Assembly (NCBI GenBank): GCA_963844965.1
Contig: CAWJQC010000004.1
Span: 32,001 to 96,000 of the forward strand
Reading direction: 5' to 3'
DNA from: an uncultured bacterium
GTDB taxonomy: Bacteria; Patescibacteriota; Minisyncoccia; UBA6257; 2-01-FULL-56-20
DNA: 64,000 bases
The notes under the pieces were generated by a model, which was not told the origin of the DNA, made no database searches, and worked only from the letters and a program-made list of their open reading frames with translations. The translations under genes were made by a program, and so were the position numbers. Below, in pieces: positions 1-49,894 of this stretch; the stretch's first letter is position 1, and each line of letters opens with the position of its first letter.

Positions 1-511
1 GGGCAGCTTCCGCTACTCGTGCCTTGTTACGACTTATCCCATGTCACCGAGCTTAAGCTAAATCGCCTGAGGCGATCTTCACCTACTCCCGGCTCCCTTG
101 GATTGACGGGCAGTGAGTACAGGACTCGAGAACGTATTCACCGCAACATAGCTGATTTGCGATTACTAGCGATTCCAGCTTCATGAGGGCAGGTTGCAGC
201 CCTCAATCCGAACTGAGACCGGGTTTGATGGGATTAGCTCCGCCTTGCGACTTCGCAACCCATTGTCCCGGCCATTGTAGCACGAGTGTAGCCCAGGGCA
301 TCAGAGGGCCATGCTGATTTGACGTCATCCCCTCCTTCCTCCCCGCTCAGAAACCACGAGACATGAGACACACGTCACGACTCACAAATTTATTGTGCAT
401 CGTGCTACGTGTATCGTGCATCATGAACTCTGAGCGGGGCAGTTTCGCGTGACACTTGTAACACACGATAGGGGTTGCGCTCGTTACCCCACTTAAGGGA
501 ACACTTCAAAG

Positions 512-542
<31 letters not shown>

Positions 543-669
543 ACGTGACGTCCTTGAGAGAGGGCCCGCCTTTCGGCAAGCTTTCGTCACGAATTTCAAG
601 CCCTGGTAAGGTTCCTCGCTTACTGTCGAATTAAACCTCATGCTCCACCGCTTGTGCGAGTCCCCGTCT

Positions 670-701
<32 letters not shown>

Positions 702-1161
702 TCCCAGGCGGCCGACTTAACGCGTTAGCTCCGCCACTCCGAGGGTCGATACTCGAAACAGCAAGTCGGCATCGTTTAGGGCGTGGACTACAAGGGTATC
801 TAATCCTTTTTGCTCCCCACGCTTTCGCGTCTCAGAGTCAGGAAGGTCCCAGTGCCATGCCTTCGCCTTTGGTGTTCCGCACGATATCAACGGATTTCAC
901 CCCTACACCGTGCGTTCCAGGCACCTCTAACCTCCTCTAGTTTCGCCGTATCTCCTGCACTTCCACCGTTAGGCGGTGGGATTTAACAGAAGACGCACGA
1001 AACCTCCTACACGCTCTTTACGCCCAATAAATCCGGATAACGCTCGAGGTCTACGTATTACCGCGGGTGCTGGCACGTAGTTACCAACCTCTTTCCGTAT
1101 GGTACGGTCACCCAGCACTTTTGGAACGAACTTTTCTAATTTGCTCAAATTTTTGGAGGTA

Positions 1162-1190
1162 TTGACAACAGCAATCACTTCTGCTATAAT
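1162..1190 (+). promoter_or_regulatory. Perfect consensus sigma70 promoter (TTGACA-17 nt-TATAAT) inside the 16S insertion, antisense to the rRNA.
   Basis: TTGACA at 1162-1167, a 17-nt spacer, TATAAT at 1185-1190. Confidence 0.6.
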
Positions 1191-1269
1191 GCCCATAGCA
1201 CATTGGGAGACCAACGTGCCGCACGTCGGGCCTCAGCCCTTGTGCAATTCCCAAAAGGAGAATTGATTT

Positions 1270-1461
1270 ATGCGTGCCAAATTCCCGTCACAAGTCACGG
1301 ATCGAATACTGGAAGCAGCCAAGAAAGAGTACTCCTTCCAGATCAATCATGCGGAATTAGGGCGGCGGCTGTTTACGCGCAAGCACTGTGGCACGAGAAT
1401 GGTTCAGGTAAAAGTCTTTCTGCAAGGAAGACAACAACCTGCCATACTCGGAAAACAATAA
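1270..1461 (+). CDS. 63-aa basic hypothetical protein encoded antisense inside the 16S rRNA insertion.
   Basis: AAGGAG RBS at 1255-1260, 9 nt upstream of ATG 1270. The ORF is MRAKFPSQVTDRILEAAKKEYSFQINHAELGRRLF.... It is preceded by the consensus promoter and followed by an intrinsic terminator. Confidence 0.45.
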   Translation: MRAKFPSQVTDRILEAAKKEYSFQINHAELGRRLFTRKHCGTRMVQVKVFLQGRQQPAILGKQ

Positions 1462-1542
1462 CCACAGATGCACGGACGCCGCAGTATGCCCCGTTTGTTT
1501 GCTGGCATATGTCATGACTAACGACTAGCTGCCACCTTTCTA

Positions 1543-1577
1543 CTGCCACCAGAAGCTTTCCGGTGGCAGTTTTTTAA
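1543..1577 (+). terminator. Intrinsic terminator after the 63-aa ORF.
   Basis: ctgccacc-agaagctttcc-ggtggcag hairpin followed by TTTTTT. Confidence 0.6.
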
Positions 1578-2337
1578 ATCCAAAAATTTGAGCAAATTAG
1601 TTTTCCCGCCAAAAGTGCTGGGTTCTTCCCATACTACCGCAGTTTACAACCCGAAGGCCTTCTTCCTGCACGCGGCGTCGCTCGATCAGGCTTTCGCCCA
1701 TTGTCGAATATTCTCGGCTACTGCCACCCGTAGGTGTACGAACCGTTTCTCAGTTTCGTCGTTGGGGGTCAGGCTCTCACCTCCCCTACCGGTCATAGCC
1801 TTGGTAGGCCGTTACCCTGCCAACTAGCTGATCGGACCTAGGCCGCTCTTGGAGCGTCTTGCGACTTTGGATGCGAATGGCTTTCGCCCCCGCATCATCA
1901 TCAGGAATTACCCCGCCTTTCGGCGAGCTGTGCCCGTCTCCAAGGTACGTTACCAAGGTGTTACTAACTCGTTCGCCGCTCACTATTTTCCTTGCGGAAA
2001 ATAGTTCGCTCAACTTGCATGCCTTATCCACGCCGCCAGCGTTCATCCTGGACCAGGATCAAATCCTCAGTAAAAATCGCGCATTTATTCAATACGCGAG
2101 ATTGTGCGCCATGCATGACGCCCAAACTCGCGCATCTCACTCGTGCGTGAGTTCATACCGCGATTGATTTATTGATCTCGGTTTATTTCAATTCCAAACC
2201 GAAAAATGAATCTTATTGGGACAACTAAAAAACTCTTTTTTATTTACTTTTCTCATATTAATTTTTCAATCTGCAGTCGGCGCAGTCCTTTACCCCGCAC
2301 ATTACCTTCGGTAATAACGGGGCGAGCAACAAAACAT

Positions 2338-2438: not shown

Positions 2439-2466
2439 ATTATATTCTACCCACAACCCTTGTCAA
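2439..2466 (-). promoter_or_regulatory. rRNA operon promoter (TTGACA-16-TATAAT on the minus strand).
   Basis: rc of 2439-2466 = TTGACAagggttgtgggtagaaTATAAT, ~360 nt upstream of the 16S 5' end. Confidence 0.55.
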
Positions 2467-2487
2467 GCACCTATGATTGTGTATAAT
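2460..2487 (+). promoter_or_regulatory. rpmE promoter (TTGTCA-16-TATAAT). It overlaps the rRNA -35 on the opposite strand, and the mRNA is nearly leaderless.
   Basis: TTGTCA 2460-2465, TATAAT 2482-2487, ATG at 2498. No SD. Confidence 0.5.
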
Positions 2488-5337: not shown

Positions 5338-6057
5338 ATGACAAATAAAGTTATTTTGGAAATAAGGGCGGGGGCGGGAGGTGACGAAGCCGCTATCTTT
5401 GCGGGCGATCTCGCGCGAATGTACCAACGCTACGCCGCAAGGCGCGGCTGGGGATTCGCGACGCTTGACTCAAACGAAACATCGCTCGGCGGCTATAAAA
5501 CATTTATCGCCGAGATAAAAGGAGAAAATGTTTATGACGCGCTGAAAAACGAATCTGGCGTCCATCGCGTCCAGCGCGTGCCGAAAACCGAGAAATCGGG
5601 ACGTGTACACACCTCAACCGCTTCAGTGGCTGTGATTCCCGAAGTGGAAGCAAAACTGGTTGATGTCAACCCGAACGACTTGGAAGTGACATTTTCTCGC
5701 GCCGGCGGCCCCGGCGGCCAGAACGTCAACAAGGTTGAAACGGCCGTAAGGATCTTGCACAAACCGACCGGCATCGTCGTTTCCTGCCGTGAAGAACGCT
5801 CACAGAACGCCAACCGCGAAAAAGCTCTGGAAATTCTGCGCGCGAAATTATTCGAACTTCAGCGCGAACAAGCAGCCGGCAAAGTAAGCGAAATCCGCCG
5901 CGAACAAATCGGCTCCGCCGAACGCGCGGAAAAGATACGCACATATAATTTCCCAGAAGACAGAATCACCGACCACCGCCTCGGAAAGAAGTTTCACAAC
6001 ATAGAGAAAATTCTTGACGGGGATTTGGAACCGATAGTCAAGGCTTTCCAAAAATAA
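5338..6057 (+). CDS. Class-I peptide chain release factor with domains 2-4 only (GGQ present, PKT tripeptide). N-terminal domain 1 is absent.
   Basis: [17 protein letters not shown]...[19 protein letters not shown]. Only ~210 nt upstream is free, so there is no room for domain 1. Confidence 0.75.
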
Positions 6058-14377: not shown

Positions 14378-14641
14378 ATGAGCAACAAAAAAGGGCATCG
14401 GATTGCAAAGGAAGTGAAGGCGGACATCCTCCGCCGCGTGAAGGAAGAAGGCGTTTCGGTGGCCCAAGCCGCGAAGGACCACGGCTTGCACGAGTCCACC
14501 ATCTATAACTGGCTCGGAGCCGGAGCGGCAGGCGCTCCCTCGTGGAGCGAGTTCTCCCGCCTGCAGAAGCAGAACCGCGAGCTCTTTGAGGTGGTGGGCG
14601 AGCTCACCGTGAAGCTCTCTCAGGCCCAAAAAAAGAGTTGA
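14378..14641 (+). CDS. IS3-family transposase OrfA (HTH).
   Basis: RIAKEVKADILRRVKEEGVSVAQAAKDHGLHESTIYNW plus a leucine-zipper tail. Confidence 0.8.
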   Translation: MSNKKGHRIAKEVKADILRRVKEEGVSVAQAAKDHGLHESTIYNWLGAGAAGAPSWSEFSRLQKQNRELFEVVGELTVKLSQAQKKS

Positions 14642-15420
14642 CGGAGAAACGGGACAAGTCGGCCCTGGCCAGGGCCATGGGCGTCTCACGGGCATCGCTC
14701 TACTACGTTCCGAAACAGTACGCGAAGGATTGGGCATTCAAGATCCTGATCGAGGAAGAGCTGCGGCGCCATTCCTCGTACGGCTCGCGGCGCCTGGCGC
14801 AAGCCCTCCACGCGAACCGCAAACGGACCAGGCGTGTGATGAAGCTCTTTGGCATCAAGCCATACCGGAGGCGGGGCAAGAAATATCGTAAATCAAAGGC
14901 ATCGCGGGCCTTTCCGAACCTCTTACTTGCCATCATGCCCTCGTACGCGAACCACGTCTGGGCAACCGATTTCACGGAGTTCCTGTATCGCGGCAAGAAA
15001 GTGTACGTGTCCACGATACTCGATCTTTTCACGAGACGATTGATGGGCGTCCATGTGGCGTTGCGGAAAGGATCGCCCCTCACGATACAGACCCTGGCCA
15101 ACGCGCTTTTCCACCATCCGCATCCGGTCATCTTCCATTCGGACAACGGCAGCGAGTACAAGGCACGAGCGTTCACCGATACACTGGGGGACTGTGGCAT
15201 CACGATCTCGCGGTCGCGGCCCGGTGCCCCATGGGAAAACGGCTACCAGGAATCGTTCTATGACAAGTTCAAGATTGACCTCGGTGATCCCAACCGGTTC
15301 GGGACCTTCGGCGAGCTCGTGGCGGAGATCTACAGCACCTTGTGGCAGTACAACCACACGCGGATCCACTCCGCCCTCAAGATGCCGCCGTCCGTGTTTG
15401 CCGAGAAGATTGCGGCTTAA
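14638..15420 (+). CDS. IS3-family transposase OrfB (DDE integrase core).
   Basis: WATDFTEF...HSDNGSEY...NGYQESF. rve domain. Confidence 0.8.
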   Translation: MTEKRDKSALARAMGVSRASLYYVPKQYAKDWAFKILIEEELRRHSSYGSRRLAQALHANRKRTRRVMKLFGIKPYRRRGKKYRKSKASRAFPNLLLAIMPSYANHVWATDFTEFLYRGKKVYVSTILDLFTRRLMGVHVALRKGSPLTIQTLANALFHHPHPVIFHSDNGSEYKARAFTDTLGDCGITISRSRPGAPWENGYQESFYDKFKIDLGDPNRFGTFGELVAEIYSTLWQYNHTRIHSALKMPPSVFAEKIAA

Positions 15421-15472
15421 CGAAAAAAAACGGCAAAAAGCCGTCGAATCACTGTCTAAAGAAACCTATCCT

Positions 15473-15736
15473 TTACAGGTGTTTATAGCTGCCATCTTCT
15501 GGTGCCCAAGACTCAAACAATTTCTTTAAGTCCTCTATGATTCCCACCTCCCACTCCATAATAACAAGCGCTGCAGTCGTTCCAAAAACGAATATGTGCG
15601 CGATTCCGTCCGAGAGGCCGGATTGCTTGACCACCGCAGCAACCCGATCGGTGATGTTTATAAAATCGTAGTGACCTTTTGTTTTGACGGAAAGGATCAT
15701 CGCCATATTATCTCGAAAGTTGCGGGTGGGGTGCAA
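15473..15736 (-). pseudogene. N-terminal 87 aa of a YjbQ/UPF0047-family protein, truncated immediately next to the IS3 right end.
   Basis: HITDRVAAVVKQSGLSDGIAHIFVFGTTAALVIMEWE...DGSYKHL* compared with the ~138-aa family. Stop is 13 nt from the IS IR. No C-terminal remainder was found on the other side of the IS. Confidence 0.6.
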
Positions 15737-24119: not shown

Positions 24120-24230
24120 TTAGAAAATAGTAAGTAGAAATTAGAAAATAGAATTTTGTCGGGATTTTCGGCGAAGTTCCGATTTCTATTTTCTATTTAC
24201 TATTTTCTACTTTCTATCTACGATATTGCT
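24120..24230. repeat. Long imperfect AT-rich inverted repeat (TAGAAA-type spacer) between convergent dnaE and the nucleotidyltransferase gene.
   Basis: agaaaatagtaagtagaaattagaaaatagaa ... ttctattttctatttactattttctactttct. Confidence 0.55.
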
Positions 24231-49864: not shown

Positions 49865-49894
49865 ATTATATACCATTCCCCCAACTGCTGTCAA
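49865..49894 (-). promoter_or_regulatory. tuf promoter (TTGACA-18-TATAAT on the minus strand).
   Basis: rc TTGACAgcagttgggggaatggtaTATAAT, ~125 nt upstream of the tuf ATG. Confidence 0.5.

Follow-up and report, generated by a model that had tools for sequence, protein, structure and literature searches.

The 16S rRNA gene in a 64,000-nucleotide stretch of contig CAWJQC010000004.1 (hereafter the window), from an uncultured bacterium of the Patescibacteriota, is interrupted in helix 17 by an insertion that carries a small antisense gene with its own promoter, leader and terminator. The same architecture recurs at loci inside and outside rRNA genes, and the gene product belongs, judging from its sequence relatives, to a real, new and very rare protein family. 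With a confidence somewhat better than even, the insertion is explained as a copy of a rare, horizontally mobile cassette of ~450 bp that landed in the helix-17 loop and is likely excised as an intervening sequence (IVS). Under this explanation the cassette would consist of a sigma-70 promoter, a leader carrying a 5'-terminal hairpin and a stem that presents the Shine-Dalgarno (SD) sequence, a gene for a basic protein of ~85-92 amino acids (aa) with a probable zinc site, and an intrinsic terminator. The rRNA-borne form would be bracketed by inverted repeats, and cassette plus repeats would make up the mobile unit.

Anatomy of the helix-17 insertion

The window contains a complete bacterial small-subunit rRNA gene on its minus strand (1-2074; Rfam RF00177, 1315 bits, model positions 1-1533). 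The Rfam alignment shows that a 7-nucleotide (nt) loop at consensus positions ~458-464, in distal helix 17 (variable region V3), is replaced by 500 nt, and that the gene is otherwise colinear with the consensus and complete on either side of the insert. The ~423 nt given in the initial annotation, which was made from the sequence alone, correspond to the interior between the inner arms. The features of the insertion and its open reading frame (ORF) are the following.

1..2074, minus strand: 16S rRNA gene, host of the insertion (Rfam RF00177)
1110..1124: left outer arm, pairs with 1609-1623 (15 bp, perfect)
1136..1157: left inverted repeat, 22 bp, perfect, with the core GCTCAAATTTTTGGA at 1143-1157
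1162..1190, plus strand: sigma-70 promoter (TTGACA 1162-1167, 17-nt spacer, TATAAT 1185-1190; 12/12 matches, TG before the -10 box)
1198..1219, plus strand: extra 5' leader hairpin GCACAUUGG/CCAACGUGC, window copy only
1221..1264, plus strand: conserved leader, with the hairpin GCACGUCGGG…CCCUUGUGC at 1221-1245; leader sequence CCCTTGTGCAATTC…GGAGAATTG
1255..1260, plus strand: SD sequence AAGGAG, 9 nt before the ATG at 1270
1270..1461, plus strand: 63-aa ORF (ATG 1270, TAA 1459-1461), family residues 1-48 followed by 15 out-of-frame residues
1410..1413, plus strand: A4 run with a probable 1-nt insertion
1412..1528, plus strand: +1 frame encoding the C-terminal half of the family protein, KSFCKEDNNLPYSENNNHRCTDAAVCPVCLLAYVMTND (TAG 1526-1528)
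1543..1575, plus strand: intrinsic terminator (hairpin 1543-1569 with an 8-bp GC-rich stem, -15.4 kcal/mol, then T6 at 1570-1575)
1579..1600: right inverted repeat, pairs with 1136-1157
1609..1623: right outer arm, partner of 1110-1124

The promoter, SD sequence, 63-aa ORF and hairpin with T-tract that the initial annotation had described are all present at these coordinates, and the perfectly complementary arms that it reported proved slightly longer (1110-1124/1609-1623, 15 bp, and 1136-1157/1579-1600, 22 bp). The outer arm is probably the native helix-17 stem; its CCAG/CUGG was aligned by cmscan to the helix-17 consensus. RNA of the rRNA sense folds with a z score of -10.7 and its minimum-free-energy fold is dominated by the long paired arms, a stem of 22 bp and 15 bp with an internal loop between them. 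The insertion thus shows two anatomical hallmarks of an RNase III-type IVS, namely an insert at a helix tip of an otherwise colinear rRNA and a flanking duplex of at least ~20 bp. Within the insert the GC and AT skews change sign, as expected for a plus-strand gene inside it. No intron ribozyme model was matched when positions 1090-1640 were scanned on both strands with cmscan at E ≤ 10, which gave only three sub-threshold hits to unrelated families. A match to RT-6 RNA over the left repeat was dismissed as noise (20.5 bits against a threshold of 46.7).

Helix 17 is one of two insertion sites in the window 16S gene. The other, at 341-439, is a ~99-nt imperfect hairpin at the tip of helix 40, with arms that are 70% complementary; it sits between …ACUGCC and GGAGGAAGG… and has no ORF or signals of its own.

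The cassette promoter at 1162-1190 runs antisense to the rRNA. Perfect TTGACA-N16-18-TATAAT sequences number three in the 64-kb window, where 0.02 are expected, an excess that chance would not give. One of the other two, at 2439-2466 (minus strand), precedes the 5' end of the 16S gene by ~365 nt and probably drives the rRNA; the consensus is thus in use in this organism. An rpmE promoter with 11/12 matches, at 2460-2487 (plus strand), overlaps it back to back. The third lies at 49865-49894 (minus strand). Nor are the arms attributable to chance: the 21-nt arm has no second match in the 64 kb (0 expected).

DNA was available for nine independent loci carrying a homologous ORF, the window copy included. 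A sigma-70-like promoter is found at the same upstream distance in all nine, and the leader begins ~7 nt past the -10 box in each. Its first part is a hairpin with the family form AGCAyGUCGGG-loop-CCCUUGUGC; in its second part AAUUC (1246-1250) pairs with GAAUU (1260-1264), with most of the SD sequence in the loop. Of the alignment cells, 94% are paired, versus 36-61% in slid controls, and compensatory changes occur at three pairs. Several leader pairs are G-U, so that the structure can form on the ORF-sense strand only. The extra hairpin at 1198-1219 looks, from its sequence, like a duplicate of the conserved one.

By scan, all loci but L006 have a hairpin with a T-tract 1-31 nt 3' of the stop codon (eight of nine); at L006 a hairpin and T-tract of like appearance were recognised by eye only. 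In the window the terminator lies to the inside of the right inverted repeat, and the antisense transcript should therefore end before the 16S sequence. Read on the rRNA strand, the terminator hairpin has A6 ahead of it and no U-tract behind. The cassette is a tight module that extends from the -35 box through the terminator. That the antisense unit is a genuine expression unit, as initially proposed, is borne out by the recurrence of this architecture at all nine loci and by the coding pattern of substitutions described below.

Searches with the leader and right-end patterns returned no further copies. In genome contigs the leader pattern had 14 matches, none encoding the family and thus attributable to chance; in metagenome contigs it recovered only the known locus L013 and three chance matches, and in viral sequences it had no match. 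Two viral matches to the right-end pattern apparently fall in phage lysis or late-gene regions and are unrelated to the cassette.

The interrupted reading frame and its protein family

The initial annotation took the gene product to be a basic 63-aa protein. Comparison with its relatives indicates that the 63-aa ORF is the frameshift-truncated form of a ~85-aa gene. Between the RMVQVK motif (counted from its Met codon) and LPY/LPF (up to its Pro codon) there are 42 nt in the homologues and 43 nt in the window. With one A removed from 1410-1413 the frame reads MVQVKSFCKEDNNLPY, in agreement with the family MVQVKSF, and the resulting protein of 85 aa can be aligned with the relatives over its full length. 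The relatives carry a C-terminal …AVCPVC..Y motif, which the 63-aa ORF lacks. The extra A is either a real inactivating mutation or an assembly homopolymer error; barring the latter, the gene in this genome is probably inactive and decaying, as far as can be judged from the sequence. A programmed frameshift at the A-run was considered and rejected, as a +1 shift is needed, A AAA G is a site of the -1 type, and A4 is too short for transcriptional slippage.

The family is small. A word-indexed search of 5.8 billion proteins with the 63-aa ORF returned only the ORF itself. An exhaustive phmmer search of 1.84 billion representatives found five relatives of 87-91 aa (E 3e-10 to 4e-4), to which two profile searches contributed another three full-length members and a 46-aa fragment. 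In total the family has ~10 distinct sequences, the relatives being 87-92 aa long and 30-56% identical. Pairwise identity by codon position is 0.54/0.62/0.35, and 61% of the identical residues are specified by different codons, a pattern that marks the family as protein-coding.

AlphaFold2 was applied to the 9-sequence alignment, structure prediction having been suggested initially, and produced a confident but generic fold (predicted local distance difference test score, pLDDT, 89; predicted template modeling score, pTM, 0.76), comprising one helix, a long β-hairpin and three short strands. Positions 39/40 are HC, CC or CH, and the CPxC motif is missing only from the truncated window ORF. Together these residues form a probable four-ligand zinc site, as suggested by their conservation, and the 63-aa ORF lacks two of the four putative ligands. 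The family proteins are basic (isoelectric point, pI, 8.9-9.7), with grand average of hydropathy (GRAVY) values of -0.6 to +0.3, and are predicted to be soluble and without a membrane segment.

No family member has a Pfam match beyond noise at E ≤ 10. Searches of PHROGs, NCBIfam, PDB sequences and BFVD viral structures, as well as plasmid and phage tblastn, were all negative, and PADLOC gave one noise hit only, with no match to a defence-system or toxin family. The suggestion that the element is toxin-like thus finds no support in these soluble, basic proteins with a confidently predicted globular fold. No LAGLIDADG, GIY-YIG, HNH, His-Cys box or DDE signal was detected in the family protein, and its 88 aa show no transposase features; guesses of a ribbon-helix-helix or HNH fold were discarded in view of the predicted fold and Pfam. 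The best guess is that the protein binds nucleic acid and serves the cassette itself rather than the ribosome.

Genomic contexts, terminal repeats and competing explanations

Two of the nine loci with DNA fall within rRNA genes and seven elsewhere, so that the gene is not specific to rRNA. The cassette faces an oppositely oriented neighbour in every locus examined. The contexts outside the window are as follows.

P0007: between a hypothetical gene and ruvB; six contigs, at least five metagenome samples
P0004: between rpsT and uvrB; a perfect 27-bp direct repeat flanks the cassette
P0006 and P0008: a convergent tRNA-Tyr gene whose 3' end is 10-60 nt away
P0008 and P0009: directly after an IS30-family transposase gene (NF033563)
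P0010: adjoins a 23-mer resembling a tRNA 3' end
P0003: adjoins an apparent degraded methyltransferase gene (hand translation only)
P0005 (L009-L011): 445-nt insertion in the 23S gene, Rfam large-subunit position ~688, antisense; three independent assemblies

Several of these sites have features of their own. The direct repeat at L006 (2876-2902 and 3402-3428) consists of the last 8 codons and the stop codon of uvrB, and resembles the att-site duplication of an integrative element; no integrase is present. The IS30-family genes (L013, 96-1053, frameshifted; L015, 1-198) belong to elements whose 3' ends are ~91% identical and stop, in both cases, 10 nt before the cassette -35 box, with cassette proteins that are just 55% identical. 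This arrangement suggests that an IS30-family element inserted next to the cassette in a targeted way; its inverted repeat is unrelated to the cassette repeat. The 23-mer at L036 (~482-505) follows directly on the cassette terminator and, on the minus strand, resembles the T-arm and 3' acceptor end of a tRNA. No tRNA is called there by ARAGORN; the 23-mer may be a tRNA fragment or part of an intron-containing tRNA.

The 23S gene of L009 holds several insertions. The 23S genes of L009 (1-1372), L010 and L011 come from different samples, yet share with 100% identity a tract of ~1372 nt that takes in the cassette and a 220-nt insertion. Beyond this tract they are ~75% identical and have differing domain-I insertions. 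The identical tract reflects either homing-like co-conversion or recombination of an rRNA segment, or else chimeric metagenome assembly.

The ends of the two rRNA-borne forms are closely alike. The 15-nt repeat core GCTCAAATTTTTGGA/TCCAAAAATTTGAGC is identical at both ends of the 16S copy and of the 23S copy (L009-L011). At its right end the L009 copy also shares 24 nt without a mismatch with the 16S copy, namely TTTTTTAAATCCAAAAATTTGAGC (1570-1593), which runs across the T-run of the terminator, AAAT and the right repeat. In both copies the left repeat lies 1-4 nt ahead of the -35 box. The two cassette proteins are 44% identical and occupy different branches of the family tree. Terminal repeats common to copies at different sites are characteristic of an inverted-repeat element. 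A diverged repeat pair, with 12/15 matches on each side and one compensatory change, is present at L014. At another 23S helix of L009 there is a cargo-less repeat pair, GCTCAAATTTTTGA-15 nt-CCAAAAATTTGAGC, at a site where L010 and L011 have a short native hairpin only. It retains a T-run like that of the terminator and looks, from its sequence, like an internal-deletion derivative. Candidate target duplications are a TA beside the repeats in the window and in the L009 23S insertion or, alternatively, TTTT in the window; none was found in L014 or at the cargo-less hairpin, and the 27-bp direct repeat of L006 comes without inverted repeats.

From these observations the following mechanism may be proposed. 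On at least two occasions the cassette would have inserted at the tip of an rRNA helix. Within pre-16S rRNA its repeats would pair atop the native 15-bp helix-17 stem, so that the insert hangs off the tip as a long duplex. By analogy to classical IVSs, RNase III would most probably cut the insert out without religation; failing that, it would be tolerated as an expansion. The antisense orientation is probably the sole viable one: in the sense orientation the cassette terminator would be placed into the rRNA transcript, and as oriented the promoter and terminator would confine antisense transcription to the insert. For a cassette within an rRNA gene, transcription of the rRNA would run head-on against its own, and complementary RNA would greatly outnumber its mRNA. 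Expression is probably poor for these reasons, which fits the frameshift in the window copy.

Several observations weigh against this proposal. No further copy of the repeat lies in the window. Inverted repeats are lacking at six of the nine loci, and the cassette and its repeats may accordingly be modules that can separate. Between copies the arms diverge in their outermost 3-7 nt (CTAATTT versus TACCC) with complementarity kept; this is not usual at the ends of transposons, and selection for RNA pairing would account for it no less well than recognition by a transposase. The target-site duplication is not consistent among copies, and the orientation argument draws on two independent rRNA-borne lineages (n = 2). 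No relative with an empty helix-17 site was found, the window aspartyl-tRNA synthetase (AspRS) being the sole member of its 90%-identity cluster.

The separability of repeats and cassette is accommodated by a model of two nested elements, in which the repeats are a pre-existing palindromic hairpin, either like a miniature inverted-repeat transposable element or an rRNA expansion, and the cassette inserted into its loop. Such nesting would account for the cassettes without repeats, for the free-standing hairpin with the same arms in L009, for outer arm parts that vary and stay complementary as in an RNA helix, and for the compensatory change within the L014 arms. However, independent insertions would not give the same repeat-cassette junctions in the 16S and 23S copies, and the cargo-less hairpin retains the cassette terminator T-run, as a deletion derivative would; the nested arrangement is consequently considered unlikely. 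The ~88-aa zinc-binding protein may instead be the mobility enzyme itself, the cassette being an autonomous mini-transposon or homing element that cuts or recombines at its ends and at hairpin-like targets, such as rRNA helix tips and the 3' ends of tRNAs and genes. Ends conserved at 100% over 15-24 nt beside proteins of 44% identity, a basic protein (pI 8.9-9.7) and a location always near the 3' end of a convergent gene are compatible with this idea. So are the cargo-less pair accompanying a full copy in one 23S gene, like a non-autonomous derivative, and the tract of ~1372 nt round the cassette that is 100% identical in three 23S genes (~75% beyond) and resembles co-conversion. The identical tract could nevertheless be an assembly chimera, the protein has no HNH, GIY-YIG, LAGLIDADG or DDE signal, and the H/C alternation at position 39 fits a metal ligand rather than a catalytic His. 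Moreover, most intact copies have no inverted repeats, which means that the gene is kept without them, and the insertion sites have no target sequence in common. A mobility role for the protein is thus regarded as quite improbable. Its boldest form is a long shot: at ~450 bp the cassette would be smaller than any autonomous mobile DNA element so far seen in bacteria, its ~88-aa zinc-binding protein, which resembles no known nuclease or recombinase, would recognise the conserved 15-24-nt ends and the hairpin-like targets, and its spread by homing-like gene conversion would also explain the identical 1.37-kb tract of three otherwise divergent 23S genes.

Co-option by the host, with the transcript or protein modulating 16S synthesis or maturation by interference or by pairing with pre-rRNA, corresponds to the regulatory role that the initial annotation had raised. 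The perfect consensus promoter would fire head-on into the only visible rRNA operon, the antisense RNA would be fully complementary to part of the pre-rRNA, and the promoter, leader, terminator and repeats are intact despite the broken ORF. The same promoter and leader, however, occur outside rRNA genes at seven of the nine loci and would therefore be inherited rather than evolved to control rRNA. The transcript should not pass the terminator and would stay within the insert, members of the family are very few, and no relative turned up that shares the arrangement. A regulatory function is accordingly very unlikely. It is hardly credible that the assembly is chimeric or otherwise in error here and that the real 16S gene has no insertion. 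In favour of this, the source is of metagenome type, rRNA genes are readily misassembled, sequence errors may underlie the frameshift, and the L009-L011 pattern shows chimeras or recombinants round such insertions. Against this, the 16S gene aligns colinearly and in full to either side of the insert, the insert is placed precisely at the tip of a helix between perfectly complementary arms, and an equivalent antisense insertion is present in 23S rRNA in three independent assemblies. A mobile cassette, which agrees with the initial suggestion of a selfish element or the remnant of a mobile insertion, remains the explanation that best fits the data.

Neighbouring features and relation to known systems

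Other features of the window lie outside the insertion. Two palindromic hairpins at 2341-2376 and 2774-2809, with identical 11-nt stems CCCTACACATT…AATGTGTAGGG, bracket rpmE (2498-2770) and the divergent promoter region. One of them is in the 16S leader, and their stems have no other copies in the window (4 half-sites versus 0.4 expected). An IS3-family-like orfA with an A-rich slippery run CCCAAAAAAAGAG lies at ~14380-15500; a 29-nt, 86% match to the 16S gene at 14432-14460 falls within this orfA and is ascribed to chance. AT-rich repeats with a 7-nt period (TAGAAAA / TTCTATT) occur at 17.5, 24.1, 27.8, 34.2 and 41.6 kb and form long intergenic hairpins, for example 24121-24161 paired with 24169-24209. 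The release-factor ORF at 5338-6057 (PCRF + RF-1) starts at PCRF profile position 100, its N-terminal ~100 residues apparently missing, and no CTTTGAC frameshift site was found near it.

ORF-bearing rRNA IVSs have been known for 30 years without a clear origin, and a share of the rRNA insertions of the Candidate Phyla Radiation (CPR)/Patescibacteria is unexplained. The cassette would give one class of rRNA insertion a concrete origin, as a free-living, self-expressed gene cassette that is also found between genes. It likewise suggests how such a gene may be tolerated inside an essential RNA gene, namely by lying antisense, by terminating its own transcript internally and by having flanking repeats that pair into a stem that can be removed. 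A new, very rare protein family is added, whose fold is predicted with confidence and whose mRNA leader is conserved, and the cassette is a candidate minimal mobile element that can be put to the test. For annotators it carries the cautions that a strong promoter can lie within a 16S gene and that Pfam-based surveys of rRNA insertions can miss real genes.

The initial annotation held that rRNA insertions usually encode homing endonucleases on the sense strand; such elements do exist, but the statement is incomplete, as ORFs that do not encode endonucleases (PMC4990558, PMC11270868) and antisense endonuclease genes (PMC3679873) are known. The closest parallels are the ORF-bearing IVSs excised by RNase III in Coxiella burnetii, Leptospira and Xanthomonas (S23p / 23S_rRNA_IVP). 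Like the cassette, they are a few hundred nt long, sit at a helix tip between complementary flanks, carry a small ORF of unknown function, are sporadically distributed and are regarded as selfish or formerly mobile. For the 428-nt ORF-bearing IVS of Coxiella, removal by RNase III has been shown experimentally, and its ORF is decaying in some strains (PMC4990558). The S23p-type IVS differs from the cassette in having its ORF on the sense strand, without a promoter or terminator of its own, and in encoding a four-helix-bundle protein (PF05635). The cassette has an antisense gene with its own sigma-70 promoter, leader and terminator, is also found outside rRNA genes, and encodes an unrelated protein without a Pfam match that is predicted to be an α+β zinc protein. 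The host sites also differ, namely 16S helix 17 for the window cassette and 23S helix 45 for the S23p-type IVS.

Insertions of at least 100 bp are present in 48% of CPR 16S genes and 82% of CPR 23S genes, the 16S figure for other bacteria being 1.1% (Tsurumaki et al. 2024, PMC11270868). The two insertions in the window 16S gene and the several in the L009 23S gene conform to this picture, and the former (helices 17 and 40) would by themselves suggest a CPR/Patescibacteria host. S23p-type ORFs also occur in CPR 16S and 23S insertions, and the same survey reported uncharacterised 500-1000-bp insertions, some of them suggested to be RNase III-type IVSs (PMC11270868). The characterised CPR insertions are group I or group II introns or carry LAGLIDADG or GIY-YIG genes, whereas the cassette insert matches neither. 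As the survey annotated ORFs through Pfam only, a cassette of the present kind would have been counted as having no ORF.

A protein gene antisense within an rRNA-gene insertion has a precedent in the S956-2 rDNA group I intron of Didymium iridis (PMC3679873). That case is eukaryotic, and its self-splicing ribozyme carries a His-Cys box endonuclease that homes to one site. The cassette, in contrast, has no ribozyme or recognisable endonuclease, and its insertion sites vary. Miniature inverted-repeat elements such as the Correia elements of Neisseria are short, have inverted-repeat ends that pair into long RNA duplexes within host transcripts and are cut by RNase III on transcription, can carry promoters, and coexist in cargo-less and longer forms. 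Elements of this type are non-coding, are present in tens to hundreds of copies per genome, and generate a defined TA duplication. The cassette differs from them in its single copy per 64 kb, the complete gene inside it and the lack of a consistent duplication. Set against all of these systems, the novelty lies in a cassette that is complete from promoter to terminator, whose gene encodes a new protein family, and which is found in rRNA genes as well as elsewhere.

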